Source: Patescibacteria group bacterium (GTDB lineage: Bacteria; Patescibacteriota; Patescibacteriia; UBA10025; JAHIVO01). From it: a stretch of 64,000 bases of DNA. Below the pieces are notes generated by a model that saw only the letters and a list, made by a program, of their open reading frames with translations, was not told the origin of the DNA and did not search any database. The DNA lies in contig JBMOKY010000001.1 in the NCBI GenBank assembly GCA_049325535.1, positions 157,002-221,001 of the forward strand, written 5' to 3'. This document shows positions 10,788 through 29,436 of the stretch, in pieces. The position numbers and the translations under genes are program-made. The first letter of the stretch is position 1; every line of letters begins with the position of its first letter.

Positions 10788-10799
10788 TCATACTGATGC

Positions 10800-12125
10800 A
10801 TGGAAACCTTACTCGAAAAAAATATACGTGATATCGTAGCACTGACCCCGGCCGACCTCGTTCGACAGGACATCGCTGATCAGATGGTGGAGGTGGTCTA
10901 TGAATATGAGCGGACAGCTCGTTTTGGTGATCTGAGTAAGCTGGTCAATTTTTTCTCGTCGCGTCTGACGCATGATTTCGAGCGGGCGTATCCGGAGCGG
11001 GCGCAGCTGTACTGGTCACTGCTCATCTGGACGAAATTCGTGGTACTGCATCTCTTGCCGGATGATGACGTGGAGCAATTGATGGCCAAACACCTACTCG
11101 AGGGATTTGATCTGGAGATCGACATCCGCCAGCGGATCAAGCTGCTTTTTCAGCAGAGCTGGGACCCGTATCTGCGGGGGGAAAAGCGCGATCGCCTGCT
11201 GAAGGCTTTTTCGGAAAATGAGCAGCAGCTCTGGCCGGGCAAACTGGAGCTAGGTAACGGGCGGATGGCACCGGCTACTGTATCGAATATACTGCTTGAC
11301 TACAATCGTTTTGCCAAATCTGATGAACCGCGTGGGAGCCTGGAGCAGGCGAGCTATCTGGATCGTAGCCCCAATACCAAAGGTTTGACCGAATCGAATC
11401 GAGCCCGGGTGCTGCAAATCATTCAGCTGTATGATTTTGTCCGCTATCCGCCGATTGAGGAGATGGCACGCGAACAGGTGGTTTCCCCACTGATTCAGAG
11501 CGGTCCGAAAGCCCCAGGCGCCAAACGGGCGCTGCCGGATGAACCGTTGCAAATTCCCGGCCAGGGGGTACCCCTCTCGGCCACGATAGTGGACCCTATG
11601 GAGCGTCTAAAAATTCAGTATCAGACATATCGGGCAAAGCGTCGGCCGGTTCTCGATGCCGAAGATGCGCTGATGGTCGGTACCGGGGGCGATGTCCAGG
11701 CGTTGAAACGCGAACTCGCGGCAGCATCGCGCAACCGGGAAAAATACCGGCTGATCGCCTGTCTGAAGATCTTGGCCCGGGAGCAGGCGCTGGTGACTGC
11801 TGTTCAGTCCAGTCCGGCTTGGCAGCAGGCGACCGCTGATTTCGTAGTCAGGAAATATCGGGATGAAATCAGCGATCGGGAATTGCCCCTGGTGCAGCAG
11901 CAGGCAAAGTCGCGCGCGGACCTGCCGCAGGTACTGGCTGAATTTCTCCAGTATTTGTTACGTGAAAAATTGGAAATGAGCCAGAATGATTCCGCCCTGG
12001 TCGGTGTGGAGATTGGACAATTATTGGGCGGTAGTTTCGAGGGCATGGCCTATGGCAATCAGCAAACCGGTGAATTTGAGTGGGCGCGGTATGCTGTGCG
12101 TGACGGGCAACTCGTTCCCCGGTAG
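10800..12125 (+). CDS. hypothetical protein (441 aa)
   Basis: Long ORF with coding-like composition and no recognisable motif. Confidence 0.6.
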   Translation: METLLEKNIRDIVALTPADLVRQDIADQMVEVVYEYERTARFGDLSKLVNFFSSRLTHDFERAYPERAQLYWSLLIWTKFVVLHLLPDDDVEQLMAKHLLEGFDLEIDIRQRIKLLFQQSWDPYLRGEKRDRLLKAFSENEQQLWPGKLELGNGRMAPATVSNILLDYNRFAKSDEPRGSLEQASYLDRSPNTKGLTESNRARVLQIIQLYDFVRYPPIEEMAREQVVSPLIQSGPKAPGAKRALPDEPLQIPGQGVPLSATIVDPMERLKIQYQTYRAKRRPVLDAEDALMVGTGGDVQALKRELAAASRNREKYRLIACLKILAREQALVTAVQSSPAWQQATADFVVRKYRDEISDRELPLVQQQAKSRADLPQVLAEFLQYLLREKLEMSQNDSALVGVEIGQLLGGSFEGMAYGNQQTGEFEWARYAVRDGQLVPR

Positions 12126-12223: not shown

Positions 12224-13846
12224 ATGGGTACGCGACGAGAATCCTATAAGGTAATTGCCCGCGACCATGCCACCATGTTTTTTCATTTGGCGGCATATAT
12301 TGAGGCGACTGCCACCACCTCGCGGCGTATTATCGGTATGCCCGACACCTCGCTGGCGGGCATCACGGAAAATGGTTTTTGGAAATATTCCGCGCAGATG
12401 CGGAAAGCGCTGGCGGCGACTCGGCATACGCTGAAGAAATTGGAGGGCGCGTCGTTTTTCCGCCGGGTCTATGACCAGCAGAAAAAAAGTTGTGCCGCAG
12501 TAGTGCGGCAGACGCGGCAGATTCGGGATGCCCGCATCAGCCAGTGGTCAGATCGACAGCTCGTGGCTGCTTATCGGAGGATCTATAGGCTCTGGGTCGA
12601 GATGAATGCTTGGGGTCAGGTGCCAAATCTGGCTGATTTTGAGCATTTTCTGCTGACGGAAAAAATCATGGGATTTCTGCGCGAACGCTCAAGCGGCAAA
12701 TCGATTTCTCCGGCGGAAGCGTTTGGCGTATTAGTAGCGCCGGTGGAGCGGTCGCCTTTGGCCCGGTATGAAGGAGATTTGTATACTGTGCTTGGCCGTA
12801 TTCAGGCGGATACCGCCGCCCGCAATATGTTCCGTCGGCATGCGACAGCGGATATCGATATCCGACTGCGGTCATTTCCCGTGCTGCAACGCACGGTGAA
12901 TCAGCTGGTGCGGCGGTATGACTGGATGCAGTACCATTATAATGGTCCAACCATACTCAGTCGATCGTATTTCATCGAGCTGCTCGCAAGTGAGATCAGG
13001 CAGGGAGTGGATGCTCGAGCAAAAGCTGCTGCTCAGGCCGCCCATATTCCCCAAACAAAAGCCGAGCAGCGACGAATCGCGGCACTGCTTGGCTTGACTG
13101 ACCATGAGCGGTACTGGGTGTGTGTAGCCCGGACATTTGCTTATCTGAAAGCATTGCGCAAGGATACGGTCTTCATCGGCAGCCGCAATTCCGAGCAGCT
13201 ATTTTCCGAGCTCGGCCGTCGGCTCCACATCAGTCGTACTCAGGCGCGCTACCTGTCGCCGGACGAGGCAGAGCGGTGGCTGCGGCGCGGTCGGGCAGAC
13301 GTCGATCTGGTCAATGACCGGTATCGGCTCAGCGTGATCTATGCTGATGAAAAAAAATTACATATCATCACCGGCGCACCGGCAAAAAAAATGAGCAAGC
13401 TTTTTTATGAAGAACAAGCGCCAAAACATGTGAAAGAACTGACCGGCACATCAGCCTATCCCGGTCGGGTGCGCGGTCGGGTGAAGATCATCATCCATGC
13501 TGATGACATGCAGCGGATGAACCGAGGGGATATCCTGATTTCTCCCGCCACAAATCCAAATGTCGTCCCAGCTATGAAGATTGCCGGCGCGATCGTGACG
13601 GATGAGGGCGGAGTGACCTGTCATGCGGCGATTGTGTCTCGGGAATTGAGAAAACCTTGCGTCATCGGCACGCGGGTGGCCACCAAAGTATTCACAGACG
13701 GCGACCGAGTGGAGGTGGATGCGCAGCGCGGCATCGTTCGTAAACTTCCCGATCAGTCTGTTACTGTATCCCAGCGCCATGTGAAGTTCTCTACCCATCC
13801 CAAGCGTGGCGCGCGGGCGACGAAAGGCGGGGTAAGGAAAATATGA
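12224..13846 (+). CDS. PEP-utilizing-enzyme mobile (swivel phospho-His) domain protein, paralog 1. It resembles the substrate-binding plus His domains of rifampin phosphotransferase/PEP synthase and lacks an ATP-grasp domain
   Basis: C-terminal motif GDILISPATNPNVVPAMKIAGAIVTDEGGVTCHAAIVSRELRKPCVIG, with the catalytic His in a GGxTxHAAIxxREL context. ~400-aa N-terminal domain of unknown fold. ATGA overlap with the next gene. Confidence 0.8.
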   Translation: MGTRRESYKVIARDHATMFFHLAAYIEATATTSRRIIGMPDTSLAGITENGFWKYSAQMRKALAATRHTLKKLEGASFFRRVYDQQKKSCAAVVRQTRQIRDARISQWSDRQLVAAYRRIYRLWVEMNAWGQVPNLADFEHFLLTEKIMGFLRERSSGKSISPAEAFGVLVAPVERSPLARYEGDLYTVLGRIQADTAARNMFRRHATADIDIRLRSFPVLQRTVNQLVRRYDWMQYHYNGPTILSRSYFIELLASEIRQGVDARAKAAAQAAHIPQTKAEQRRIAALLGLTDHERYWVCVARTFAYLKALRKDTVFIGSRNSEQLFSELGRRLHISRTQARYLSPDEAERWLRRGRADVDLVNDRYRLSVIYADEKKLHIITGAPAKKMSKLFYEEQAPKHVKELTGTSAYPGRVRGRVKIIIHADDMQRMNRGDILISPATNPNVVPAMKIAGAIVTDEGGVTCHAAIVSRELRKPCVIGTRVATKVFTDGDRVEVDAQRGIVRKLPDQSVTVSQRHVKFSTHPKRGARATKGGVRKI

Positions 13847-15456
13847 AACACCCGCGATTTTTATATGATGCCGATCCATGGATGCTCGGCGAGGATATCC
13901 CTGATGCCGATGTTTTTTTTGCCCAGATCTGGCAGTCGGCATTTGTGAATGAATTTTCCCGTCCGAGTGGCCGGGCATATCGGAAATTGCTCAATGTCCA
14001 GCGGGGTCAGCACCTCTGGTTTTATTTTGGAGAGCGGGATTCATATGATGCCGGTGAACATATAGCCCGGCGAATCATTGGCGATCCTCAATGGGCGACC
14101 ACTATCAATAAGAATATCGTGCTCTGGGCCGATCGACTGCGCGGATTTGCCGAAACAATCCCCGATGATTCTTTAGCAGCGTTGTCCAATGCGGCGCTGT
14201 GGCGGTGGTATCGAAAACACGACGCGGTACATACGCAATATTATCAATGGTGCTGGATCCCCGTCGGTGCTGACATGTTCCATGACAATCTGACCAATCG
14301 GGTGAAGCGGTATCTCCGACAGCGTACGCCCGAAGATAACATCAATGAATACCTGGTCATATTGACGCAGCCGCGCAAGAAGTCGCTGATCCAAATAGAA
14401 CATGAGGATTTCCTGAAAATCGCCGGGGTGATTTACCGTCATACGAAACAGCGGGACATTTTCAGGAAACTGTATCGGACATTCCAGGAGCAGCAGACCG
14501 CGCCCATGGGTCTCAAAACGCACACTCCCGAGTATGAACGCGTGCTCGAAGAGCGAGTGAAGGGCATGAAAGCTCAAATCCCCTCCTCGATACTCAGACG
14601 TATTGAGCGCCATTACCGGGCGTATTATTATGTGAAATTCATGTGGATCGGCAAAGACGGAGTGTATTCGTTTGACCACTACCTGAAAGAGCTGGTGAAG
14701 CTGATTGGCAGCGGGGTAAACCCGCTTATGGAATTAGCCAGGCTCGGTCGTGAGTTCAGGCGGCAACAGCAGGTGCGACAGCGGCTGATGAAAAAATTGC
14801 GGATCGGACCGAAATGGCGGAAGGTGTTTGATGAGTGGGGCGATTTCATGGTGACCAAGATCTACCGCCGCTATGCCCAGATATATGCCATCTACCGGAT
14901 GCAGCCGATACTGAGGGAGATCGCTCGGCGTATCCGGTTGTCCGATGGGGACGTCCGGTTCATGCTGAAAGATGAAGTGCGCCAGGCGCTGCTGCAGAAA
15001 AAAGTGAACCGCGCTGCCATCCGTTCGCGCAGGAAACTGGCGGTGTATTATTATGAAAAGGGCTTAGAAATGGTATTTACCGGAGCCAGAGCCCGAGCGT
15101 TGGTGAAGCGGGTAGAAAAAATACACACGCATGATGTTCGTGAGGTGACAGGCCAGGTGGGCTGCGTCGGTATGGCTGCCGGCATCGTGAAGTTGGTTTT
15201 TCGTCCATCAGACATGCCCAAGATGAATACCGGGGATATTTTAGTGTCGATCGCCACGGATCCTGATATCGTACCCGCCATGAAAAAAGCAGCAGCCATC
15301 GTGACTGAGCAGGGCGGCATGACGTCGCACGCGGCCATCGTCGCTCGCGAGCTTGGTATCCCCTGCGTCATCGGCACGAAAATCGCCACTAAAGTATTCA
15401 CAGACGGCGACCGGGTGGAAGTGGATGCGACGAAAGGAATTGTGCGGAAGATATGA
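13843..15456 (+). CDS. PEP-utilizing-enzyme mobile (swivel phospho-His) domain protein, paralog 2
   Basis: C-terminal GDILVSIATDPDIVPAMKKAAAIVTEQGGMTSHAAIVARELGIPCVIG. Start overlaps the stop of paralog 1, and the stop overlaps the start of paralog 3. Confidence 0.8.
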   Translation: MKHPRFLYDADPWMLGEDIPDADVFFAQIWQSAFVNEFSRPSGRAYRKLLNVQRGQHLWFYFGERDSYDAGEHIARRIIGDPQWATTINKNIVLWADRLRGFAETIPDDSLAALSNAALWRWYRKHDAVHTQYYQWCWIPVGADMFHDNLTNRVKRYLRQRTPEDNINEYLVILTQPRKKSLIQIEHEDFLKIAGVIYRHTKQRDIFRKLYRTFQEQQTAPMGLKTHTPEYERVLEERVKGMKAQIPSSILRRIERHYRAYYYVKFMWIGKDGVYSFDHYLKELVKLIGSGVNPLMELARLGREFRRQQQVRQRLMKKLRIGPKWRKVFDEWGDFMVTKIYRRYAQIYAIYRMQPILREIARRIRLSDGDVRFMLKDEVRQALLQKKVNRAAIRSRRKLAVYYYEKGLEMVFTGARARALVKRVEKIHTHDVREVTGQVGCVGMAAGIVKLVFRPSDMPKMNTGDILVSIATDPDIVPAMKKAAAIVTEQGGMTSHAAIVARELGIPCVIGTKIATKVFTDGDRVEVDATKGIVRKI

Positions 15457-16802
15457 ACACTATCAAATGGGTCAAACAACTGACTCGAGAAAATACACTA
15501 CTGGATCGCTCGCTCCGGACCGCTGCGTATTATGACAGTGTGCGAAAAATTGGTGCGGCCCGCTTTGCGGAAGCGCTTGTTGTCGGGTTTGGATCGGTTT
15601 CGTCATTTTATTATTCCGCGGCTGACTATAGAAAACAACGCGCCATCATAGCCCGTGAATTCCATGGGCCAAACATGTATCAGATGAGCGAGCAGATGGT
15701 GCATGCATTGGAACAGGCATACCGTTGGAGTCGAGCTGCTCGACGCCAGCACGTATCCGCGCGGCAGTATGCCGATTTTTTCCGGGAGTTTCAGCTTCAT
15801 CACGCTCATGCCCGAGGAGCCATCGTATATGGGTACTGGGGTGAGCCGTCGGCGCGCGCCAGCCTGCGCGCAGCATTACGTCGCCGTTTGTCGGCACGTC
15901 GGAGTGATGCTGTACTTTCCTTGTTGTCTTCCCCGCGCTATGTCCCCGGAGTACTCCAGCGGTTGCGGCGTCTCCCATCCCAGTCAGAGCGCCAGCGTTT
16001 GCAGCTGATGCGATCGATCGGTCTGAGTAAATCGGCCCAGCAAAAGGTGGAGCACATGAGTTGGCTGACATTTTTTTATGAATATGGGGAATTTGTCGCT
16101 GGGCATGTATACCAGACGCTGGTAATGCACCTCCGGCACTTAGCACGAAGCGATAGACAATTCCACGATCTCGAATGGTATGATCCGATTTCACTCAAGC
16201 GCTATTTCCAGGGCAAACGATTATCCCCAGATGAATTAGACAGGCGCCGTGAGTGTTATATCATAGAAATGAAGCACGGTCGATGGAAAATACTGTCAGG
16301 GAAGGCAGCGCGGCAATATTATCACCGATTGTTCGGAAATGACTCTCGCCGTACCGTAGCCGCACCGATAGTGAAAGGTATGACCGCTCAACCGGGCAGG
16401 GTAGTCGGGACAGTGCGAATTGTCATCAGGCGAGCTGACCAGGCTTCAGTTTGCGAGGGTGATATAATCGTTTCGCCCATGACCACCCCTCATCTGATGA
16501 CCGCCGTACGAAAGGCGGCGGCGATAGTAACGGACGAGGGTGGCATGACGGCGCACGCTGCCATCGTCGCTCGTGAGCTGAAGGTTCCGTGCGTTGTCGG
16601 AACAAAAAACGCCACCACGGTATTTAAAGACGGCGATATGGTAGAAGTGGATGCGCAGCGCGGCATCGTCCGCAAACTGCCCGATCAGTCTGAGGTAGTA
16701 AACCAGCGACGTGATGACAGAGCACCGCAGATCCGCGCGAAGTCCCGCACCCGCCGCAGGCGTGGTGTGCGAGCCACTCGTGGAATAGTCAAGAAAGTAT
16801 AA
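15453..16802 (+). CDS. PEP-utilizing-enzyme mobile (swivel phospho-His) domain protein, paralog 3
   Basis: C-terminal GDIIVSPMTTPHLMTAVRKAAAIVTDEGGMTAHAAIVARELKVPCVVG. Its Arg-rich C-terminal tail is shared with paralog 1. Confidence 0.8.
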   Translation: MNTIKWVKQLTRENTLLDRSLRTAAYYDSVRKIGAARFAEALVVGFGSVSSFYYSAADYRKQRAIIAREFHGPNMYQMSEQMVHALEQAYRWSRAARRQHVSARQYADFFREFQLHHAHARGAIVYGYWGEPSARASLRAALRRRLSARRSDAVLSLLSSPRYVPGVLQRLRRLPSQSERQRLQLMRSIGLSKSAQQKVEHMSWLTFFYEYGEFVAGHVYQTLVMHLRHLARSDRQFHDLEWYDPISLKRYFQGKRLSPDELDRRRECYIIEMKHGRWKILSGKAARQYYHRLFGNDSRRTVAAPIVKGMTAQPGRVVGTVRIVIRRADQASVCEGDIIVSPMTTPHLMTAVRKAAAIVTDEGGMTAHAAIVARELKVPCVVGTKNATTVFKDGDMVEVDAQRGIVRKLPDQSEVVNQRRDDRAPQIRAKSRTRRRRGVRATRGIVKKV

Positions 16803-16804
16803 AT

Positions 16805-17386
16805 ATGTTTACTGGTATTATTTCCGCACAATCAAAGGTAATGGGTCACGCAGGCGCCGACGGGAGCATAGTGTTTGCATTTCAGCGGCCGCCGAAGTGG
16901 CACATCAAGAAGGGCGACAGTATTGCCGTCAATGGTATTTGTTCTACGGTGTCGGGCTTGACCCGAACGTCATTTGCGGTTGAGTACATGCCCGAGACAG
17001 TGCACAAGACCACGGTGGCACAGTGGCAGCGCGGGATGGGAGTCAACCTGGAATCGAGTTTACGCTATGGTGATACGCTTGGCGGACACCTGGTGATGGG
17101 GCATATTGATTGCGTCGGTATCGTGCGGCAGGTTGGTCGCCAGGGGCGGTCACGCGCCGTACGCATCGCGATTCCACGGAAGTTTTCGCGATATATCGCC
17201 CCTAAGGGCTCGGTAGCCATCGACGGGGTAAGTCTGACGGTGGTGCGGGCAGGACGCGGCTTTTTTTCCGTCGCATTAGTTGACTACACCCGGCGCCACA
17301 CAACGCTTGGTTTCCTTCGCGAGGGGATGGCAGCCAATATCGAATGTGATATCGTGGGTAAATATTTAGAACAATTAGCAGCATAA
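16805..17386 (+). CDS. ribE: riboflavin synthase (alpha subunit)
   Basis: MFTGII start, NGxCSTV, ETxxKTT, GGHLVMGHID and GSVAIDGVSLTVV motifs, all typical of riboflavin synthase lumazine-binding repeats. Confidence 0.9.
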   Translation: MFTGIISAQSKVMGHAGADGSIVFAFQRPPKWHIKKGDSIAVNGICSTVSGLTRTSFAVEYMPETVHKTTVAQWQRGMGVNLESSLRYGDTLGGHLVMGHIDCVGIVRQVGRQGRSRAVRIAIPRKFSRYIAPKGSVAIDGVSLTVVRAGRGFFSVALVDYTRRHTTLGFLREGMAANIECDIVGKYLEQLAA

Positions 17387-17438
17387 TTCTATGCGGCGAC
17401 TCAAACTGCCTCATATTCAAAAACTATCGGGGAGTACA

Positions 17439-17849
17439 ATGCGCGTTGGGATTGTCGTTTCGGATTTCAATGGTGATATCACCAGCCGATTGCTGCATGG
17501 CGCCACGACCGCACTGCGGAAGTACGGTGTCGTGCCGCGCAATATCACGGTGGTACACGTGCCGGGCGGCTTTGAGATCCCCCTCGCCTGCCAGCGGCTT
17601 GCGCGTACAAAAAAATTCGACGCACTGGTAGCGCTCGGTTGTGTGATCAAGGGCGCCACTGACCATTATTATTACATCGCCGGCGAGGCGTCGCGGGGCA
17701 TCATGCGGGTCATGCTTGACCATGGCATTCCCATCGGATTCGGCGTATTGACTACCCACACGCTCGCGCAGGCGCGGGCACGATCCAGTCAGCGTGATAA
17801 TGCGGGTCGGCATGCGGTTGAAGCGGCGTTGGTGATGGCACTGAAATGA
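17439..17849 (+). CDS. ribH: 6,7-dimethyl-8-ribityllumazine synthase
   Basis: MRVGIVVSDFNGDITSRLLHGA...ITVVHVPGGFEIPLA...ALGCVIKGATDHYYYIAGEASRGI...GFGVLTT. GGGGAG RBS lies 6 nt upstream of the ATG at 17439. The ORF track's longer frame starts at 17391. Confidence 0.9.
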   Translation: MRVGIVVSDFNGDITSRLLHGATTALRKYGVVPRNITVVHVPGGFEIPLACQRLARTKKFDALVALGCVIKGATDHYYYIAGEASRGIMRVMLDHGIPIGFGVLTTHTLAQARARSSQRDNAGRHAVEAALVMALK

Positions 17850-18469
17850 AATCCTCTATCAAACTCATCCTCTGGGATTTTAATGGGGTGACGGTAGTTG
17901 GTGACCACACCTTAACATCAAAACACTTCGGCAAGAAACACCATGCGCCATGGCGGCGGGTATATGCAATTTTGTATACCAAATATTTTAATCAACTGGC
18001 GCTGAATACAATCAGCGAACAGAAAGCGTGGTCAGCGCCCCTGCGGGAATTAGGCTGGCATGAAGACTGGCGGGCGGTACGGCGGTGGCACCTCGGGCAG
18101 CAGCGTCTCCGCACAACCGTGATCGGGTATGTCCAGTCATTGCGGCGTCGCGGATACCAGTGTGTGCTGTTCAGTAAGAATTATGAACCGTGGGTCAAAT
18201 ACCAAGAACGGCGCTTACATTTCAGTCGGTATTTTGACGACGTGCTGAATACGCAGAAATATAACCTGCCGAAAGCCAGCCAGAAAACCATCCGGTTTGT
18301 CTGCCGGCGGTATGCGGTTAAACCCGAGGAGATTATCTATATCGACGATCAGCGGATCAATCTGATTGAAGCGCAAAAGCTCGGCGTACAGATACTGCAC
18401 TATCGTACTTTCAAACAGACTCGTCACCAATTGACGAAGTTACTCCTTCGCTCGGCTACACCCGAGTAG
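17846..18469 (+). CDS. HAD-superfamily-like hydrolase with a variant motif I (DFNGV)
   Basis: N-terminal LILWDFNGVTVVGDH (HAD motif-I-like, second Asp replaced by Asn). C-terminal IYIDDQRINLIEAQKLGV (motif-IV-like DD). ATGA overlap with ribH. Confidence 0.5.
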   Translation: MKSSIKLILWDFNGVTVVGDHTLTSKHFGKKHHAPWRRVYAILYTKYFNQLALNTISEQKAWSAPLRELGWHEDWRAVRRWHLGQQRLRTTVIGYVQSLRRRGYQCVLFSKNYEPWVKYQERRLHFSRYFDDVLNTQKYNLPKASQKTIRFVCRRYAVKPEEIIYIDDQRINLIEAQKLGVQILHYRTFKQTRHQLTKLLLRSATPE

Positions 18470-19172
18470 ATCCTTTCCGGTGTTTTCTCAGGTAGGCGCG
18501 GAAATATGTCCACTTGGCTGTATCCTGGTGCCAGTAGTTCGGGTAGCGCACATACCACCGCATCAGTTGCAGCCCCTCTGCTGAAATAAACCCATGCTGG
18601 TACTGGGCGGTCATGATCTCGTCCAGGCTGCACATGCTCCACAGGCGCACGCGCAAGCTTTTGGTCCAGCGGTCTGCTCCGGGACTTCCCCTATGGGCGA
18701 CCACCATCAGGTCGGTCACGGTAAATCCCGTAGCCCGTACGTTGCGCACGAATTTTTTCTTTGAGGTGCCATTTGCCGTGGCGTCATCGATGATCAGGGC
18801 GCGACTGCCTTTTTTTATACTCGGTACGTTTCCTTCTACCGCCTGTCCCAGGCCGCCTTTTTTCGGATCCTTCCGTACGTACAGGAATGGTTTGCGAAGC
18901 AGTAGAGCCAGCGCGGTAGCAATGGGTATGCCGGCAGTGGCGCAGCCGACGATGACATCGGATGTGATACGGTGCTGCCGGATGATGCGTGCCAATTCAC
19001 GGGCTACTATTTGGATGTTGCCCGGTTTCGTGTACATCTTCCGCATGTCGGGATAGAGCGGAATCCACCACCCGCCGGTGGTCTGGTAGGGGCCGACGGT
19101 AGTGAAATGCGGTGTAGCGCCAAACAGAGAAATGATTTTTTTGTTATGAAAATAGTGTGCGTAGTCAGTCAT
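18456..19172 (-). CDS. pyrE: type I phosphoribosyltransferase, orotate phosphoribosyltransferase-like
   Basis: SDVIVGCATAGIPIATALALLL, PFLYVRKDPKKGGLGQAVEG and the PRPP-binding RALIIDDATANGTS are collinear with OPRTase motifs. Confidence 0.5.
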   Translation of the reverse strand: MTDYAHYFHNKKIISLFGATPHFTTVGPYQTTGGWWIPLYPDMRKMYTKPGNIQIVARELARIIRQHRITSDVIVGCATAGIPIATALALLLRKPFLYVRKDPKKGGLGQAVEGNVPSIKKGSRALIIDDATANGTSKKKFVRNVRATGFTVTDLMVVAHRGSPGADRWTKSLRVRLWSMCSLDEIMTAQYQHGFISAEGLQLMRWYVRYPNYWHQDTAKWTYFRAYLRKHRKGSTRV

Positions 19173-19200
19173 GGGTACAGTATACCACCAGCGGGTAAAT

Positions 19201-19236
19201 AAAAAAGCGCGTCAACCCGAGGGCAGTTGACGCGCT
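19201..19236 (-). terminator. Rho-independent terminator downstream of the 19263..19946 gene
   Basis: Top strand reads AAAAAA-GCGCGTCAAC-CCGAGGGCA-GTTGACGCGC. On the minus strand this is a 10-bp GC-rich stem followed by a T6 run immediately 3' of the gene end. Confidence 0.65.
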
Positions 19237-19262
19237 GATAGGCATGGGGCCGACACGCGCCG

Positions 19263-19946
19263 TTAGCGGCGCGTAATCTTTGCCATTTTGACAAAGTCCA
19301 CGACGCCGTCGGTGTGCCGGTTGCGTTTGACCTCAACCGGTACGTTGTTTTCGTCGAACACGATGTCGTAGGCTTCGCATTCCCACAGGGCGCCGTCGAT
19401 CTCGTCAAGTCGGAAGCGCAGCGGAGCGGTATTACCTCCGCCTGCCCCAGCTTTCCGCTGAGCCAGAACCGCGACCGGTTCGATGCAGCCACCGTGGGAG
19501 AAAATAACCGCCACTTCTCCATCGGCGAGTTCATGTGCAATGCTGCAAATGCGCTCGTAGCCGGCCTCACCTCGCTCGATGAGGTACTCGGCTAGGTTAG
19601 CCTCCGGTTCGAATATCGCTTCCTCGATCGTCAGATTCTTCTGGCAGCCGATTTCCTTCAGCCGGGCAATGATGTCCGGTTTCGGAGTGCCGTTCCATTC
19701 GGGCGGCATCTGGTCGAACGTCGCATCGGTTTCGATGGCGCAGTCACTGATGCCAGCAGCCGGCAGGTAAATGACAGCGGTTTCCTGGGCGCGCGGTGCC
19801 GGAGAAGAGACAACCTTCTTCACCGTGGTCAGGGGGTTCATGCCACCGGCGATTGTTGCCAGGGCGGTACCGAATTTGCTGTCTTTGACAGCATTGGCGC
19901 CATCGATGGTGACCGAGTGACGAACCATACGCACGAGTTTCATCAT
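19263..19946 (-). CDS. histidine phosphatase superfamily (phosphoglycerate-mutase-like) protein
   Basis: N-terminal VRMVRHSVTIDG (RHG-type motif) and C-terminal VIFSHGGCIEP (SHG motif). Confidence 0.55.
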   Translation of the reverse strand: MMKLVRMVRHSVTIDGANAVKDSKFGTALATIAGGMNPLTTVKKVVSSPAPRAQETAVIYLPAAGISDCAIETDATFDQMPPEWNGTPKPDIIARLKEIGCQKNLTIEEAIFEPEANLAEYLIERGEAGYERICSIAHELADGEVAVIFSHGGCIEPVAVLAQRKAGAGGGNTAPLRFRLDEIDGALWECEAYDIVFDENNVPVEVKRNRHTDGVVDFVKMAKITRR

Positions 19947-20098
19947 TTCCTCCTGTCCCAGCCGGGACGGTTTTCAGTTACAGTATTTGTATCGTTTATT
20001 GCCTATTGTATAGATGCCAAGGTGCAAAAAATAACCAGCCATACTAACATGCATTAGCGGATTTGTCAATAGATATAGGCTGTATTACTGACAAATCA

Positions 20099-20140
20099 AA
20101 AAAAAGAACCCCCAGCGTATGCGTGTGCATACGACTGGGG
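20099..20140 (-). terminator. Rho-independent terminator downstream of the 20162..20797 gene
   Basis: Top strand AAAAAAAGAA-CCCCCAGCGTATGC-GTGT-GCATACGACTGGGG. On the minus strand this is a ~13-bp stem followed by a T-rich run. Confidence 0.6.
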
Positions 20141-20161
20141 ATTGTGCAGGGAAAGGGGGGC

Positions 20162-20797
20162 TTATTGGGCCTTGTGCGTGGCGAGGTATCGCTCCTCGAC
20201 CGTTTTGCCGCTTTCGTTGAGGATGAGCTCAACGATCTGGCCCGGCTCCATGAAATGAGCCGGCTGGAGCGGCCTGCCGCAGCTGTTCGGGTGCCGCAGA
20301 CTGTCGATGGTCACCTCCATCCGGGATCCGCTATGGGAGACGGCGAGGATGGTTTTGCCGGGTATGGTGTGGTTGCGCAGCACCGCGGCGCCTTCGTTGC
20401 CGCGCCGCAGCAGCATCGCCGCAACCTCGTGGTTGCGTTCGGCCATGGTGAAGAGGTAGGTCTCGATATTGGAGCCGGTTTCAGCCGCTCCAGACTTGAT
20501 CGACTGAACCAGCTCCGGGTCCTCCTGCGCGAGGTCCCCGAGATCGGGATCGGTGGTGGTGTATCCACCCGAGCCGAACCCGGCCTTGGTGAAGTAGGCG
20601 GTGGCTAGGCAGCGGTCAGCCGGTGAGCTGACACAACCGGCGATTTCGATGCCGGCTGCTTTCAGTTGCTTTGCCTGGGCGATCAGCAGATCAGACTGCC
20701 CATCCTTCAGGATGTTTCCCTCATGCGCGGCATGGCGCATGAACAACACCCGACACTCCGTCTCTTTCAGCTGACGGAATTCTAATGACTCTGACAC
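20162..20797 (-). CDS. histidine phosphatase superfamily protein, paralog of 19263..19946
   Basis: VLFMRHAAHEGN (RHG-type motif) and ILAVSHSGSRME (SHG motif). Confidence 0.6.
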   Translation of the reverse strand: MSESLEFRQLKETECRVLFMRHAAHEGNILKDGQSDLLIAQAKQLKAAGIEIAGCVSSPADRCLATAYFTKAGFGSGGYTTTDPDLGDLAQEDPELVQSIKSGAAETGSNIETYLFTMAERNHEVAAMLLRRGNEGAAVLRNHTIPGKTILAVSHSGSRMEVTIDSLRHPNSCGRPLQPAHFMEPGQIVELILNESGKTVEERYLATHKAQ

Positions 20798-20918
20798 GAT
20801 ACCTCCTACCCTTTGTGAAAGGGTTTTTCTATAGGTTTATGTTTGGTTTTCTATGTGCAAAATGACCTCGTATCGTAGCACGAGGGCGGGTATTTGTCAA
20901 TACCGTGTATGCGGCGTC

Positions 20919-22052
20919 CTATGATTCCTTTTCAGCAGGTTCGGCGGGAGTTTCTTCACGGGGTGACTCTGCTTCAGACTCGTCAGGCGAGCTTTTCAGC
21001 GCTTCATAGTCGGCATCATACTGTTCGGCCATCTCTTCCTGTTCCCGTAGGTGCCGGTCCGCCTGGCGCTTGATCAGCCAGACGCTGATCGTCCACCAGG
21101 GAAAGAAATTGACGATGGGGATGAATTCGGCGAGCGTGACTGCCATGAACCGTGCCCAGAATTTTCTGATCAGCCAGCGTTTCAGCCAGATGCCCTGATT
21201 TGCCACCACGACGAGTAGGATGCTGGTGATGACGATCTGAAGAATCGTCGATGAGAACCCCGCGTCGAATAATTCAGTGAGCAGGTCCCACAAGTCTTTG
21301 GTGATGGCCAGCGTCAGTACCAGCAGGTAAGCGGTGAAACTGCCGGTGGCGATCCGTTCCCGCAATCCTTCACCCACCCGTCCAGCGACCGCTACAGCCA
21401 GTTTTTGCTTGCCTTTGAGTTCTCCCGATTGGATGCGCTTAAGGGTTTGGGCATCAGGGTTATTGGCCAGATCGAGGTCGGGACTGTCCACCATTTTTGC
21501 CATCCGTTCCAGGGTTGAATTGTATGATTTTGATTGGCGAAGCTGGTTGATGCGCTGCTGGGCCATCTGATCGCTCCAGTTTTGTTCCCGGGCGTCAGGA
21601 CTCATCTCCGGTGATTCATCCGCCGACGCTTCTGATTGCTGCGCTGTGGTCGTCTCTGGAACGCGAACCGGGCTGCTCACTTGTGAGCGGGCAGCTTCGG
21701 CGTTTTTCTGTGTATCGTCCGTGTCGGCATCCGGCTGCTTGACGTTCTTTATGGAAAATGAAACCGAAGTACCCAGCTCGGGGATTTCCAGGGCGGGTGT
21801 AGGTTTTTTATTTTGCTCTTCCTGTTTTTTTTGCCGTTTGGCTGCATCGCCGCCTGGGTCAGGCGCGTTTTTTTCTGCCGGCTTCTCCTTGAGCTGGTCA
21901 ATCTGAATGGTGCGGCCTTTTTCCTCGCCAATTTCCGGCGGCTGTGCGGCTGGCTGTATTTTCTTTACTCGTTCGCTTTGCTCTTCTGACTGGTTGTATT
22001 TTTCGGTCTCTGTTTCAGCCATAATGTTTATATCATACCATTTTTTACGCAA
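20919..22052 (-). CDS. hypothetical membrane protein with a ~230-aa highly charged low-complexity N-terminal region and C-terminal TM helices
   Basis: N-terminal half is E/K/Q/P-rich. The C-terminus has 3-4 hydrophobic helices (YLLVLTLAI, ILQIVITSILLVVVA, FMAVTLAEFIPIVNFFPWWTISVWLI). Confidence 0.55.
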   Translation of the reverse strand: MRKKWYDINIMAETETEKYNQSEEQSERVKKIQPAAQPPEIGEEKGRTIQIDQLKEKPAEKNAPDPGGDAAKRQKKQEEQNKKPTPALEIPELGTSVSFSIKNVKQPDADTDDTQKNAEAARSQVSSPVRVPETTTAQQSEASADESPEMSPDAREQNWSDQMAQQRINQLRQSKSYNSTLERMAKMVDSPDLDLANNPDAQTLKRIQSGELKGKQKLAVAVAGRVGEGLRERIATGSFTAYLLVLTLAITKDLWDLLTELFDAGFSSTILQIVITSILLVVVANQGIWLKRWLIRKFWARFMAVTLAEFIPIVNFFPWWTISVWLIKRQADRHLREQEEMAEQYDADYEALKSSPDESEAESPREETPAEPAEKES

Positions 22053-22094
22053 ATATTCAAGTGTACGGTAATTTATAATCGAGTATGACGATGT

Positions 22095-22123
22095 TTGATT
22101 TTATCGTGAAATTATGCTATAAT
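22095..22123 (+). promoter_or_regulatory. sigma70-like promoter (TTGATT-17 nt-TATAAT) upstream of the ATP-grasp gene
   Basis: TTGATT at 22095-22100, a 17-nt spacer and TATAAT at 22118-22123, ~58 nt upstream of the start at 22181, in a divergent intergenic region. Confidence 0.45.
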
Positions 22124-22180
22124 GAAGCCACTTAGTTTTGCATTTTTAACAGTGTATAAGTAGAACTCGCGGATTATTTT

Positions 22181-23131
22181 TTGATGAAGGAATTTGTACT
22201 CCCATTTAATAAATTGGGAAGGCGGCATGTCAGCCAGGCGGGTGGAAAAGGGGCCAATCTCGGTGAATTGACTGGACAGGGTGTCCCGGTGCCCCCTGGG
22301 TTTGTGGTATTACGGAGCGCATTTGACCGATTTATCAGGGAAACCGACATCATTATCGAGATTGACAAATGGCTGCACCAAGTCAATCCGAAGGATATGA
22401 CATCGATTGATCGGGCATCGCATACGCTGCGAGATGTTTTCCGCCGCACGCCGTTTCCGAGCGATCTTGCTTCAGTCATAGAGACGGCTTATAGCCGGCT
22501 GCACGCGTCTTCCGTTGCCGTCCGGTCATCTGCTACCGCCGAGGATTCCAGTATCGCTTCATGGGCGGGCGAACTCGAGTCATTCATGTTCATCACCAAA
22601 AAAAACCTTCTGGACACCGTGAAAACGTGCTGGTCATCCCTTTTTACCCCGCGGGCGATATTTTACCGATTTGAAAAAAAACTGCACCGCACGCCCGTGT
22701 CCGTGGCGGTCGTGGTTCAAGCGATGGTCAATTCCGAAGTATCGGGCATCACCTTTACTGTTCATCCCGTGAGTAACGACCACGGGCAGATGGTCATCGA
22801 AGCAGGGTGGGGCCAGGGTGAATCGATCGTTTCTGGTGCCATCACCCCTGATACCTATATTTTTGACCGGGTGACCGGCACTATCCTGGATATCAATGTC
22901 TCGGAACAACGGCAGATGATCGTGCGTGGGCGCAGCGGAACAGGAACAAAAAAAGTCTCTGTGCCAAAAAAACAGAAGGTACGCCAAAAGCTTACTGGTG
23001 CTCAAATCACGCATCTGGCCGCACTGTGTCAGAAGATTGAAAAACACTACGGCGCCCCGCAGGATATCGAATGGGTGCTGATAAAAAATAAATTTTACAT
23101 CGTCCAAACGCGTCCGATAACGACGCTGTAG
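22181..23131 (+). CDS. PPDK_N / PEP-synthase-type ATP-grasp nucleotide-binding domain protein, stand-alone (316 aa)
   Basis: LGRRHVSQAGGKGANLGEL...GVPVPPGFVV matches the N-terminal PEP/pyruvate-binding ATP-grasp domain of PEP synthase, PPDK and rifampin phosphotransferase. No swivel-His or substrate domain lies in the same ORF. Confidence 0.8.
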   Translation: MMKEFVLPFNKLGRRHVSQAGGKGANLGELTGQGVPVPPGFVVLRSAFDRFIRETDIIIEIDKWLHQVNPKDMTSIDRASHTLRDVFRRTPFPSDLASVIETAYSRLHASSVAVRSSATAEDSSIASWAGELESFMFITKKNLLDTVKTCWSSLFTPRAIFYRFEKKLHRTPVSVAVVVQAMVNSEVSGITFTVHPVSNDHGQMVIEAGWGQGESIVSGAITPDTYIFDRVTGTILDINVSEQRQMIVRGRSGTGTKKVSVPKKQKVRQKLTGAQITHLAALCQKIEKHYGAPQDIEWVLIKNKFYIVQTRPITTL

Positions 23132-23139
23132 GAAACTCC

Positions 23140-24510
23140 ATGCCACACACGCAATCAAACGACGAATGGCAAGACGGCTTCTTGGTCAAGGATCCAAGCG
23201 GCAGTTTTCGCAAAGTTACTGGAATGGATTTTATTGATGCCGATGCACCAATCCCGACAGTTGCTCCCGCCGCACCCCGGCCTGCTACTCCGCCACCGCC
23301 CCCTCGACCTGCCGCACCGGTATCAGCCCCGCGAAAGACTCCGCCGCCACCACCAACTCGAATGACTCCGGTGGCGCCGATTATGCCTCCTGCCCCACTC
23401 CAACCCCAGAAGCCAATCGCTGAGATGGGCATGGCTCCTTCGCCATTTATGGATCACGAAGACGCTGAAGAGATTAAACAGCATACGGCTGAACTACAGC
23501 AGATGGTGGCTCAGCCCGGACTGGACGTTTCGGTTACTATCAATGCCATCATCGAGCGGATTTTACGTGAGTATCGCCTGACCTTCGATACTGATGTGAT
23601 GCTGAAACGGTTTATCAAAGTCGTTGAGTCGCGATTTCGCGAGATTCGAAATTCACTGGAGACGGCCGATGTACTGCAGCGTCCGGAAAAAATCGGCGGA
23701 CTTGGGCTGCCGAGGGAAACCGTGCAGCAGATCATGGCTACGGTTGACGCTGAGATTGACGGATTGCATATGAAGAAAAGGTTGCCCGCTGTCCCGGCGC
23801 CCAAACCCAAAGCGCCATCCGCACGGGCCGTATCTACGGCTCCGCAGTCGCTGTACGCCGCGCCACCTCCGGCTTTTGTCCCTCGTCCCGGCGGCGCCGC
23901 ACCGAAACCGTCACCGACGGCACCACAACCATCGGCGATACAGCAAACATCAGATTTGGCCAAAGAAATAAAAGAGGAATTAACCCGGATTCCGCAGAAG
24001 CCCGCGGTGATTCCACCGGCACCTCCGGTTCCGCCGCCGGCACCAGCACCGAGCATATCTCCGGCCGCAGCGCCTGCCGCGAGCGAACCGCATGAACTGT
24101 ATGGTCAATCCCAGGGGGATATGCCGCGCATCCGTCCGGTGCAGCCAAATAAACCATACATGATTGACATCAAACAGCCGAGCGCAGTGGTCGGTCCGGT
24201 GGATGAGATACGGCAGATTGACCTGAAAGAATTTCGTCGTATGGGTACCAATCCCGGGGATTCGGCAGATCGGGTGTATGAAAAAATCGAACTATTGGAA
24301 GAAGAGTCCTGGGATATGCGCATGCAGGGTGTCCGAGCTTGGCGTCAGTCGCCATTATTTACCCTCTATGTGACTATCGGCCGGGCCAGCATGGAATCCG
24401 GCAATCCAGTCGACAGCGTCATCAGCAAACGCCAGCAGGCTGGTGAGCCGACGCTGCTTCCGGAGGAGTTTATGGCCGTCAACGCCTTAAATGCGAAATT
24501 AACCGTTTAG
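23140..24510 (+). CDS. hypothetical proline-rich protein (456 aa)
   Basis: Several PAxP/PPPP tracts and no TM segment. It sits immediately upstream of the T4SS-like genes. Confidence 0.55.
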   Translation: MPHTQSNDEWQDGFLVKDPSGSFRKVTGMDFIDADAPIPTVAPAAPRPATPPPPPRPAAPVSAPRKTPPPPPTRMTPVAPIMPPAPLQPQKPIAEMGMAPSPFMDHEDAEEIKQHTAELQQMVAQPGLDVSVTINAIIERILREYRLTFDTDVMLKRFIKVVESRFREIRNSLETADVLQRPEKIGGLGLPRETVQQIMATVDAEIDGLHMKKRLPAVPAPKPKAPSARAVSTAPQSLYAAPPPAFVPRPGGAAPKPSPTAPQPSAIQQTSDLAKEIKEELTRIPQKPAVIPPAPPVPPPAPAPSISPAAAPAASEPHELYGQSQGDMPRIRPVQPNKPYMIDIKQPSAVVGPVDEIRQIDLKEFRRMGTNPGDSADRVYEKIELLEEESWDMRMQGVRAWRQSPLFTLYVTIGRASMESGNPVDSVISKRQQAGEPTLLPEEFMAVNALNAKLTV

Positions 24511-24511
24511 T

Positions 24512-24943
24512 ATGCAACAGTTTATCGTTCCGCAATTTCTCGATGTCGAAAGCAAGATTATCGGACCCCTCACTGTCCGGCAGTTCATCACTTTTTTGAT
24601 CGGCGCGGGGATGATTTTCCTCGTTTTCAAACTGGCAACTTTTTGGGCGGCGGCTATCGAGGGTGTGCTGATTTTCGCTTTGACCGGCGTCTTTGCCTTT
24701 GCCAAGATCAATGGCCGGCCCTTCCACCATTTCTTGCTGAATCTGCTGCAGACGGTGCGCCGACCAACCTTGACCGTCTGGCACAAAAACTATGAACTGA
24801 GCAAAGTAAAAGAGGAAAAAGAAAAACAACCACCCGCCCGTCCACACAAAAAACAGCGACTGACCGAATCCCGACTAACCGAACTGTCGCTGGTAGTCGA
24901 TACGGGCGGCGCGTATCAGGAAGGCCTCGACGAGCTCAAATAA
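24512..24943 (+). CDS. PrgI/VirB3-like small T4SS membrane protein (candidate)
   Basis: 143 aa. N-terminal VPQFLDVESKIIGPLTVRQFITFLIGAG is followed by two hydrophobic helices. It lies directly upstream of the VirB4 homolog, as in Gram-positive-type T4SS. Confidence 0.45.
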   Translation: MQQFIVPQFLDVESKIIGPLTVRQFITFLIGAGMIFLVFKLATFWAAAIEGVLIFALTGVFAFAKINGRPFHHFLLNLLQTVRRPTLTVWHKNYELSKVKEEKEKQPPARPHKKQRLTESRLTELSLVVDTGGAYQEGLDELK

Positions 24944-24953
24944 AATATTCTCT

Positions 24954-25631
24954 ATGGCTACGGAATCTACTACAAAAACAGCTACCACTCCTTCCACCCA
25001 GCAGTACATGAATATCCTGGAGGTGAAGGATAATACGGTTATCCTCAAGGATGGAACGCTCCGAGCGGTCATTTTGGTATCGTCTATCAATTTCGCCCTG
25101 AAGTCGGAAGATGAACAAAATGCCGTCATGCAGGGATACGTTCAATTCCTCAATTCCATAGAGTTCCCTTTACAGATATTGATTCAGTCGCGGAAGCTCA
25201 ATATTGACGATTATCTTGAGCGACTGAAAGCCGTCGAGAAGGAGCAGACCAATGAGCTGCTGAAAATCCAGACGCGTGAGTATCGTCAGTACATCCAGGA
25301 ATTGGTTTCCCTGGCTGACATCATGAGCAAACGGTTTTATATCGTAGTGCCTTTTTCCGGCGGCACTATCAAGTCAAAAGGTTTTTTTACCCGGTTCAAG
25401 GAAGTGCTGACCCCGACAAATATCATCACCATCAAACAAAAGAAATTTGAAAAAAACCGCATCGAGCTGGCCAAGCGGATGGAGTATATCATTGATGGGC
25501 TGAGTTCAATCGGATTGAAGGCGGTCCAGCTCGACACGCAGAGTTTGATCGAGCTGTATTACAATACCTATAATCCGGATACGTACGACCAGCAGCCGCT
25601 CGTCGACGTGAGTAAACTCAATGTCGAATAA
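24954..25631 (+). CDS. VirB4/TrbE-family ATPase, N-terminal domain fragment (225 aa)
   Basis: YMNILEVKDNTVILKDGTLRAVILVSSINFALKSEDEQ is typical of VirB4 N-termini. It ends 2 nt before the start of the ATPase ORF, in a different frame. Confidence 0.55.
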   Translation: MATESTTKTATTPSTQQYMNILEVKDNTVILKDGTLRAVILVSSINFALKSEDEQNAVMQGYVQFLNSIEFPLQILIQSRKLNIDDYLERLKAVEKEQTNELLKIQTREYRQYIQELVSLADIMSKRFYIVVPFSGGTIKSKGFFTRFKEVLTPTNIITIKQKKFEKNRIELAKRMEYIIDGLSSIGLKAVQLDTQSLIELYYNTYNPDTYDQQPLVDVSKLNVE

Positions 25632-25633
25632 CT

Positions 25634-27550: not shown

Positions 27551-27561
27551 TCACCATACCT

Positions 27562-28236
27562 ATGGCTCAATTTAATCTCGACCGACGTCAGATGCTGTAT
27601 ATAGCCGGATTGCTCCTGCTCCTTGTGGCGGTGGGTTTCGGCATATGGTTTTTGTATTTCCGCTCGACTGACGAGCCGACAAATACCAATCAGACCCCGG
27701 CGACCAATGCGCCGGTGGAAACCGTCAATGCCACTATCCCCACCACAAACGTCAATACTGCGGCACCGGCGCCTGAGTCGGTGGAGCTGACCCGGGTGTC
27801 CAATCTTTTTGCCGAACGGTTTGGCAGCTACACGTCCGTATCCGGATTTGAAAATATGATCAATCTGAAGCCCTACATGACCCTCAAAATGCAGCAAACC
27901 GCCGATGATTTCATCAAACGCCAGCCGGCGGTAACGGCCGAAACCCCCTATACTGAGGTGGTCACCAAGGTGGTTTCCACATCCATCACCGATCAGAATT
28001 CCAGCCAGGCTACGGTGCGTCTGAGCACCCAGCGCGTGGAGTCAGGAGACGAAATGGAACAGAATACCGTGTACTATCAGGATATCATCCTCACGCTGCA
28101 GCGGGCCGATGATATCTGGCTGGTCGATACAGCTACGTGGCAGGATGTGGGCGTGACAGCTCCTGATGACACCCCGCTGGATTCAAATGTAAATACCGAC
28201 GATATCCTCGATGATATCGTCAATGGCGAACAATAG
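27562..28236 (+). CDS. bitopic membrane protein, VirB8/PrgL-like candidate
   Basis: 224 aa with a single N-terminal TM (YIAGLLLLLVAVGFGIWFLYF) and a periplasmic/extracellular domain. Position next to VirB4 is the main support. Confidence 0.3.
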   Translation: MAQFNLDRRQMLYIAGLLLLLVAVGFGIWFLYFRSTDEPTNTNQTPATNAPVETVNATIPTTNVNTAAPAPESVELTRVSNLFAERFGSYTSVSGFENMINLKPYMTLKMQQTADDFIKRQPAVTAETPYTEVVTKVVSTSITDQNSSQATVRLSTQRVESGDEMEQNTVYYQDIILTLQRADDIWLVDTATWQDVGVTAPDDTPLDSNVNTDDILDDIVNGEQ

Positions 28237-28264
28237 CCCTCAGATTTTTTTAGCGATACGATCC

Positions 28265-29365: not shown

Positions 29366-29436
29366 TTGACAGGCAAATACGGGGCTATCTGAATTTTTGT
29401 CTCATTAATCCATGTTCTGAATTCTTATAAAACAAT

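Follow-up and report, generated by a model that had tools for sequence, protein, structure and literature searches.

Proteins with a phosphohistidine swivel domain and no ATP-grasp domain raise the question of where their phosphate comes from and to what it is passed. Three such genes, here called S1, S2 and S3, stand in tandem on the plus strand of a 64,000-nucleotide stretch of a Patescibacteria genome (candidate phyla radiation, CPR; contig JBMOKY010000001.1 of assembly GCA_049325535.1, positions 157,002 to 221,001), which is referred to below as the window and numbered from its first base. The same window encodes a stand-alone ATP-grasp protein. We put at roughly three in four the probability that the four genes form a split ATP-dependent water dikinase of the rifampin phosphotransferase (RPH) type, in which a single ATP-binding subunit is shared among three alternative subunits that carry the phosphate and bind the substrate. 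This reading starts from what was observed of domain content and fold, of the catalytic motifs, which are all intact, and of conservation, synteny and gene fusions.

Domain architecture and fold of the three tandem genes

S1 (12224-13846, 540 amino acids), S2 (13843-15456, 537 amino acids) and S3 (15453-16802, 449 amino acids) are joined by 4-nt ATGA overlaps at both junctions. Each has one C-terminal copy of the PEP-utilizers domain PF00391 (S1 amino acids 433-503, E 6e-23; S2 462-532, E 2e-27; S3 335-404, E 1e-26) and none contains a PPDK_N domain in the Pfam scan, which agrees in both respects with a first-pass annotation that had described them as tandem swivel-histidine genes devoid of ATP-grasp. 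Because the Pfam E-values are so low, these domain assignments are not due to chance. The swivel motifs (GGVTCHAAIVSREL in S1, GGMTSHAAIVAREL in S2 and GGMTAHAAIVAREL in S3) keep the pattern GGxT[C/S/A]HAAIV intact, in S1 as GGVTCHAAIV. The catalytic histidine is His467 in S1 (codon 13622-13624), His496 in S2 (15328-15330) and His368 in S3 (16554-16556), and across the three proteins it lies 41, 73 and 81 residues from the C-terminus.

The N-terminal domains had been taken to be uniformly about 400 amino acids long. This is nearly so for S1 (about 405, amino acids 1-405) and S2 (about 435), and does not hold for the shorter S3, with a domain of about 305. S1 and S2 share 31% identity over 436 amino acids and S2 and S3 35% over 258; a profile-profile comparison of the S3 and S2 families (hhalign) gave E 9e-56 over positions 93-413 of S3. 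Judged from these alignments the three are true paralogues beyond the swivel domain, their N-domains being 31-35% identical or unalignable. AlphaFold2 models built from the family alignments (pLDDT 88.9 for S2 and 85.3 for S3) found RPH-Lm as their best Foldseek match in the PDB (5fbt for S2, E 2e-13, TMq 0.53; 5fbu for S3, E 6e-13, TMq about 0.5), along about 560-600 aligned columns that take in the rifampin (RIF)-binding and swivel domains. PPDK, pyruvate kinase and Enzyme I matched these models in the swivel part only, and phmmer aligned amino acids 305-534 of S2 to 629-863 of RPH. A likeness of the N-domains to RPH had been set beforehand as the check on a split system, and it is what these matches reveal, with S1 linked through its 31% identity to S2.

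A basic C-terminal tail (VRKLPDQS...RG.RAT.G.V.K) is common to S1 (13744-13846) and S3 (16680-16802). It has about 30 residues in S1 and comprises amino acids 414-449 in S3, where it is predicted to be disordered; it is absent from S2 and from the orthologues of S3. The end of the tail repeats the canonical C-terminus and the ATGA junction (ATKGxVRKI and stop; 13817-13847 versus 15427-15457), a repeat that suggests unequal recombination or gene conversion between the tandem paralogues.

The stand-alone ATP-grasp gene

The predicted ATP-binding and histidine-charging component is encoded at 22184-23131 on the plus strand. Its sole domain is PF01326 (E 7e-95, profile positions 3-311 of 328) and it aligns over its full length to the isolated RPH-Lm ATP-grasp domain (5hv6, E 5e-62). 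The published limits of the RPH domains are 1-314, 327-754 and 767-865 (PMC4844700), and the C-terminal RPITTL of our protein corresponds to the boundary of the first of them. Another match was 9goj (387 amino acids, deposited as 'phosphoenolpyruvate synthase', E 3e-46). Together with the S2 and S3 models, these alignments bear out the three-part make-up of RPH that had been suggested for the locus. The gene had been read as 316 codons from TTG 22181; the stand-alone PPDK_N domain is there, and the start is probably ATG 22184, giving 315 amino acids, since both the gene caller and the RPH alignment begin at MK. The near-consensus sigma-70 promoter claimed upstream of it also exists as a match (22095-22123, plus strand; TTGATT, 17 nt, TG-n-TATAAT; 10 of 12 consensus positions, with the TG extension), a consensus match only. 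Promoter-like matches were not clearly enriched in the region (17 versus 11.2 +/- 3.8 in shuffles).

The stand-alone ATP-grasp is a conserved family, with the top 120 matches all 309-350 amino acids long, containing PF01326 only and 57-70% identical. Nine nucleotides after the gene comes u456, followed by PrgI, TraC-like and VirB4/TraG genes. The whole type IV secretion system (T4SS)-like operon (22184-32168) runs in the order ATP-grasp, a protein of 443-460 amino acids without known function, PrgI, TraC-like, VirB4/TraG P-loop, pilin, beta-propeller, SLT-pilin and RadA-like. For comparison we fetched about 90 related loci (designated by L and a number), and two of them, L092 (10001-19781) and L093 (10001-19762), keep the order of this operon. 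Furthermore, the larger succession of S array, HAD-family gene, u377 (minus strand), ATP-grasp and T4SS-like operon is repeated in both, with u377 homologues at the same position (40% identity in L092 and 31% in L093), and the ATP-grasps of the three syntenic Patescibacteria genomes are only 62-67% identical. The 'detached' position of the ATP-grasp is therefore no accident but a trait conserved in this clade. In L084 and L090 the orthologous ATP-grasp (53-55% identity) is found inside the S array, without T4SS genes. The window is also syntenic with Kerfeldbacteria-like genomes, which share the giant carbohydrate-binding module (CBM) protein, a g441 homologue, an S array that includes an S2 orthologue, the HAD gene and a His_Phos_1 gene on the opposite strand.

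Arrays and fusions in related genomes

The strongly conserved family of S2 comprises more than 1000 homologues, whose full-length identity is typically 50-70%, in many lineages of Patescibacteria and in Nanoarchaeota and Woesearchaeota (DPANN). The best 120 are 51-98% identical and nearly all full-length, the value of 98% corresponding to the same gene in a near-identical strain, and the ATP-grasp is absent from 119 of them. Within the family alignments, columns are on average 61-64% identical. By sequence, S1 and S3 are members of narrower Patescibacteria subfamilies, with orthologues of about 510 amino acids at 44-65% identity for S1 and of 405-415 amino acids at 41-55% for S3. S1 matched 2,630 clusters at the 50% identity level with E<=1e-30, a number to which swivel domains of any kind contribute.

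Tandem S arrays contain ten genes in L010, nine in L037, nine plus one ATP-grasp in L012, eight in each of the Kerfeldbacteria loci L082 and L083, and six plus one ATP-grasp in each of L084 and L090. In unfused arrays there is one ATP-grasp per 2-9 S genes (L012, L017, L039, L044, L084, L090). In other cases the parts are covalently joined. A Woesearchaeota metagenome-assembled genome (JAFGGS010000004.1; L034:2381-13666) has an open reading frame (ORF) of 3761 amino acids with one PPDK_N and eight PEP-utilizers domains; L025:6284-12268 and L035:4526-10585 are fusions of one ATP-grasp with four S modules, and L059:5876-10075 joins one with three and is followed by four separate S genes. The reverse order is seen in the protein P0045, an S2 orthologue followed by the ATP-grasp. 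Other giant ORFs with an N-terminal PPDK_N and RPH-like modules were seen at L005:384-4319, L030:8246-11947 and L027:1749-5213; the set of giant ORFs carries 2-8 modules per PPDK_N and keeps the catalytic histidine in every swivel domain.

The 150 best cluster representatives comprise 60 single S proteins, 50 of the form SS or SSS, and 40 with one ATP-grasp and 1-6 S modules; two ATP-grasps in one protein were found in none of the 150. The catalytic histidine is present in 216 of the 216 swivel domains of the related loci. The N-domains behave very differently: clustering at 35% identity and 70% coverage leaves 133 of the 182 as singletons. The S2 cluster alone is widespread, and never do two members of one cluster occur in the same array. 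Taken together, the conservation, the arrays, the fusions, the retention of the histidine and the diversity of the N-domains speak for one ATP-grasp normally charging many non-redundant S modules. The fusions, with exactly one ATP-grasp each, give Rosetta-stone support for an ATP-grasp shared by several modules, and so favour the original proposal of one ATP-grasp serving three phosphotransfer modules, which here would act in trans.

Some S2 orthologues have an N-terminal helix-turn-helix (HTH) domain (HTH_3 at amino acids 12-65 of P0079 and HTH_20 at 7-57 of P0047; also P0066, P0085 and P0087). This suggests that in some lineages the conserved S2 enzyme may double as a transcription regulator or be coupled to one.

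Comparison with known dikinases

Split versions of RPH have been described, so that the central idea of a split system has a direct precedent. HpeHI of Rhodococcus, CreHI of Corynebacterium and the phenylphosphate synthase PpsAB of Thauera are two-component RPH homologues, consisting of an ATP-grasp subunit and a RIF-binding-like/swivel subunit and working through a pyrophospho- or phospho-histidine intermediate (PMC12167813). The mutation H581Q abolishes the activity of HpeH, and HpeH alone moves phosphate from 4-phosphoacetophenone to acetovanillone (PMC12167813). Like them, our locus encodes an RPH-type ATP-grasp apart from a RIF-binding-like subunit with a C-terminal swivel histidine, and the same reaction, ATP + X + H2O -> AMP + X-P + Pi through His~P, is presumed here. 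The known systems, however, are 1:1 pairs in aromatic-catabolism clusters that act on phenolics, while here one ATP-grasp stands 5.4 kb from three divergent S genes. In other words, the separate RPH-type ATP-grasp and the separate RIF-binding-like and swivel protein were both found, and the 1:1 pairing in a catabolic cluster was not. No PpsC-like CBS subunit was seen in Pfam scans of the window ORFs. The kind of system is thus known and not categorically new.

RPH-Lm (5FBS, 5FBT, 5FBU, 5HV1) has the same three parts and is the best structural match of S2, S3 and the ATP-grasp. It is, however, a single chain of about 865 amino acids, whereas the domains here are on separate genes, and the identity of the substrate domains is only 12-17%. 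Against the RPH equivalog models NF041857 and NF000283 (cut-offs 999 and 1700 bits) S1-S3 scored 44-72 bits and the ATP-grasp 204-281, so far under the cut-offs that rifamycin specificity cannot be deduced. PEP synthase (PpsA) and PPDK have the ATP-grasp and the swivel histidine in common with our genes, and PpsA is the nearest sequence relative of the swivels (8a8e, E 4e-28). With the PEP synthase models TIGR01418 and NF005057 (cut-offs 739.75 and 598) the S genes reached 108-122 bits and the ATP-grasp 303-315, and no Pfam match to PEP-utilizers_C, the PEP/pyruvate TIM barrel, was found in S1-S3 or the ATP-grasp. A true PEP synthase or PPDK is rejected on this ground, and with it PEP/pyruvate chemistry for these genes. 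Without the barrel and with scores below the cut-offs, the architecture is RPH-like yet outside both the RPH and the PpsA equivalog families. Genuine PpsA proteins of 750-800 amino acids are found separately in the CPR and DPANN loci L048-L081 (768 in L063, for example). PTS Enzyme I (TIGR01417) matched the swivel part only (E 2e-13 to 3e-08), below its cut-off of 341.7 bits.

Two more distant relatives deserve comparison. GWD and PWD are also water dikinases with substrate-binding modules N-terminal to the histidine domain, and the order of P0045 and L019, S followed by the ATP-binding part, resembles that of GWD; GWD, however, is a single plant/algal protein with CBM45 starch-binding modules, and S1-S3 contain no CBM. 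The prodiginine ligases PigC, RedH and HapC are RPH-like three-domain proteins in which the ATP-grasp and the swivel histidine activate oxygen for condensation. Their NCBIfam models matched the S genes with E 1e-15 to 1e-21 and the ATP-grasp with 1e-66 to 1e-67, but they are single-chain proteins and there are no pyrrole pathway genes here. By analogy with them, phosphorylation might yield an activated intermediate that is only transient.

A proposed shared ATP-grasp with three phosphocarrier subunits

The cycle that we propose is modelled on RPH, PpsAB and HpeHI. The ATP-grasp protein would bind Mg-ATP, and the swivel of S1, S2 or S3 would dock on it so that His467, His496 or His368 attacks the beta-phosphate; the gamma-phosphate would be released as Pi and AMP would leave. 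The phosphorylated swivel would then return to its own helical N-domain and phosphorylate the acceptor bound there, with ATP + acceptor + H2O -> AMP + acceptor-phosphate + Pi as the net reaction expected by homology. Charging in trans, dikinase chemistry and distinct substrates are thus what we infer for the three subunits. Since the three N-domains differ, a separate acceptor is expected for each S subunit. That of S2 is probably a conserved metabolite of housekeeping type, a common metabolite being favoured by the conservation of S2 across domains of life and by its occasional HTH fusions, while the handling of xenobiotics would likewise agree with the extreme diversity of the other modules. 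Our best guess for the role of the system is the trapping or activation of scavenged small molecules first and the inactivation of xenobiotics second.

Several observations weigh against this split dikinase with a shared charger, or limit it. The ATP-grasp gene belongs to a separate transcription unit, 5.4 kb away from the S genes, and heads the T4SS-like operon. No further PPDK_N or swivel copy was found in the 64-kb window, and the count of one ATP-grasp to three S genes covers this window, in a genome of about 1.15 Mb. No aromatic-catabolism genes are near the S genes or the ATP-grasp, so that the substrates of the known members cannot be transferred to this locus, and the NCBIfam models of PpsA/HpeH type (PRK08296) match the S proteins in the swivel part only, not in the N-domains. 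Finally, a HAD protein without its general acid/base Asp, which accompanies these arrays as described below, is left unexplained by a shared charger.

A wider picture can be drawn tentatively, and we hold it to be possible rather than probable. It would see in Patescibacteria and DPANN a modular platform in which one ATP-grasp charger serves 2-10 diversifying RPH-like modules, arranged in arrays or in megaproteins of one ATP-grasp and several S modules, A-S(n), of up to 3761 amino acids, with S2 conserved across both domains of life and the atypical HAD as a standing partner.

The riboflavin genes and the HAD partner

Two riboflavin genes follow S3 on the plus strand, ribE (16805-17386; NF006767 riboflavin synthase, 196.8 bits, cut-off 155) after 2 nt and ribH (17391-17849; TIGR00114 lumazine synthase, 147.9 bits, cut-off 84.6) after 4 nt more; the HAD-family gene (17846-18469, plus strand; PF13419, E 8e-11) overlaps ribH by 4 nt. 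For ribE and ribH the gene caller chose later starts (16841 and 17439), which shorten both genes relative to the ORFs with full-length NCBIfam profile matches. The first-pass annotation had the S genes co-transcribed with ribE/ribH. The tight packing is real, but ribE/ribH stand beside an S array at none of the about 90 related loci, so that the linkage is seen in this genome only, and they are probably operon passengers inserted between the S array and the HAD gene. The 64-kb window contains neither an FMN riboswitch nor a further riboflavin-pathway gene. For this reason, and because the other arrays lack rib genes beside them, we reject a conserved functional connection with riboflavin synthesis.

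The atypical HAD, in contrast, is a genuine recurrent partner of S arrays. Its motif I reads D-F-N, with the nucleophile Asp kept and the general acid/base Asp absent; the missing residue is the general acid/base of HAD phosphatases. In L082 a 50% identical orthologue (19046-19690) forms a fusion with an S gene, in L083 it is separate inside the array (19046-19690), a homologue lies inside the L090 array (14695-15309), another stands at the end of the L093 array, and HAD genes also adjoin arrays in L018 (15419-16015), L026 (9413-10039), L085 and L092. In all the aligned array-linked HADs motif I is D-x-N/Y/S and never D-x-D. Such a protein may accept phosphate, act as a slow phosphatase or be a HAD that is no phosphatase at all.

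Alternative explanations

The same genes could be read as resistance kinases of RPH type, S1-S3 inactivating antibiotics of the host or the community and the diversity of the N-domains representing a detoxification repertoire. RPH being the best structural match, the hyperdiverse N-domains (133 of 182 singletons, no array with two of one cluster) and a resistome survey that lists rph-like matches in CPR (PMC8651080) would all suit it. With only 44-72 bits where the equivalog models require 999 and 1700, no connection to mobile resistance contexts, and S2 sequences that are 50-70% identical between Patescibacteria and DPANN, which fits a conserved metabolite better than a variable drug, we consider this unlikely, if by no means far-fetched. 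A different objection concerns the ATP-grasp, which could be part of the T4SS-like apparatus while S1-S3 use another donor, by phosphotransfer between small molecules or from an ATP-grasp elsewhere. The succession of ATP-grasp, u456, PrgI, TraC-like and VirB4/TraG genes, kept in L092 and L093, speaks for it, as does the small-molecule-to-small-molecule phosphotransfer catalysed by HpeH alone (PMC12167813). The orthologous ATP-grasp nevertheless sits inside S arrays without T4SS genes in L084 and L090 and is covalently fused to S modules elsewhere, which makes this separation improbable. Moreover, we know of no T4SS component that needs a PPDK_N domain.

A flavin-specific system, with S1-S3 phosphorylating flavins or intermediates of their synthesis, is improbable as well, in our opinion slightly more so than the assignment of the ATP-grasp to the T4SS-like apparatus; it draws on the tight packing of S3, ribE, ribH and HAD, on the use of a HAD phosphatase by the riboflavin pathway and on the EamA-flavokinase gene after the S array in L084. 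Against it, ribE/ribH lie beside S arrays in this genome alone, the HAD orthologue, lacking its catalytic acid/base Asp, accompanies arrays free of rib genes (L082/L083, L090, L093), and neither an FMN riboswitch nor another rib gene is present in the window. The nucleophile Asp that array HADs keep, never with the acid/base Asp, could also be taken, with the HAD fused to an S gene and the N-terminal HTH_3 or HTH_20 of some S2 orthologues, as a sign of a regulatory phosphorelay, in which the swivel phosphate goes to the Asp of the HAD or controls DNA binding. Every S module keeps, however, a large pocket-forming RPH-like domain, to our knowledge a relay from swivel to HAD has no precedent, and HTH fusions are equally typical of salvage enzymes doubling as repressors such as BirA and NadR; a relay is accordingly very improbable. 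Least credible of all, to the point of being effectively refuted, is that the genes are decayed fragments or pseudogenes of a once-fused RPH or PEP synthase. Fused homologues do exist (P0045 and the A-S-S-S proteins), and had been named in advance as a possible mark of fragmentation, but the ORFs are intact, their ends match domain boundaries, the catalytic motifs are complete and there is no remnant of a PEP/pyruvate TIM barrel. S1, S2, S3 and the ATP-grasp each have their own family of same-length orthologues, and the fusions consist of one ATP-grasp and 1-8 S modules.

Neighbouring genes

The window has a G+C content of about 54% and a gene content typical of Patescibacteria, with giant CBM/dockerin surface proteins, the T4SS-like cluster, RecG, ClpB and few metabolic genes. 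The neighbours of the S genes and the ATP-grasp are the rib genes, HAD, a phosphoribosyltransferase (PRTase), His_Phos_1 genes and the T4SS-like genes. Between the S operon and the ATP-grasp a block on the minus strand (18456-22052) encodes an orotate-PRTase-like protein that scores below its family cut-off, two weak His_Phos_1 paralogues of 227 and 211 amino acids, and u377. A His_Phos_1 gene also comes after the Kerfeldbacteria array in L082 and L083. The u377 gene (20919-22052, minus strand, 377 amino acids), divergent from the ATP-grasp gene, is a conserved syntenic neighbour of uncertain membership in the system and had no match in Pfam, NCBIfam or PADLOC. Actually, PADLOC matched 0 of 10 proteins scanned (S1-S3, HAD, PRTase, both His_Phos_1, u377, ATP-grasp and g441), and an anti-phage defence function is rejected on this result.

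Upstream of the array (107-12125) there is a protein of 1969 amino acids with CBM_4_9 and dockerin domains, called as 3112 amino acids on the longer contig, followed by proteins of 1594 and 441 amino acids (the latter g441) without family match. The same arrangement precedes the Kerfeldbacteria array in L082 and L083. In the related loci we also saw an acylphosphatase directly after the last S gene (L090:20344-20616), an EamA-flavokinase fusion after the array (L084:20636-21617) and a Metallophos phosphoesterase after the S2 orthologue (L085:11834-12430), the latter also one gene upstream of the fusion of S2 and ATP-grasp in L087. Because the partners are so inconsistent (HAD, His_Phos_1, acylphosphatase, Metallophos, flavokinase, aminotransferase) we propose no substrate from the neighbours.

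Implications for Patescibacteria and DPANN

In the literature we found no description of the one-to-many layout, of the A-S(n) megaproteins or of an expansion of this size in CPR and DPANN. The nearest reports are the resistome survey with rph-like matches in CPR (PMC8651080) and a preprint according to which about 90-100% of the highly reduced Nanobdellota without glycolysis have a 'PEP synthase (K01007)' (bioRxiv 10.64898/2026.05.13.725050). Annotation of such genes as 'PEP-utilizing enzyme' or 'PEP synthase' can mislead metabolic reconstructions. Split RPH-like dikinases have so far been characterised only as 1:1 pairs of free-living degraders that phosphorylate phenolics. Here the same machinery appears one-to-many and greatly expanded in organisms with the smallest known metabolisms. 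That 3-10 such genes persist in genomes of about 1 Mb, including one with 50-70% identity between bacteria and archaea, implies that they must bring an important gain.

Knowing the substrates could explain by what means CPR and DPANN organisms capture cofactors, nucleosides, lipids or metabolites of their hosts, or withstand antibiotics, and the A-S(n) megaproteins open a direct way to study how many swivels are served by a single nucleotide site. If the tentative modular platform is true, it would be a combinatorial kinase architecture unprecedented among dikinases, and minimal symbionts would have in it a main means of trapping, activating or neutralising small molecules taken from their hosts.

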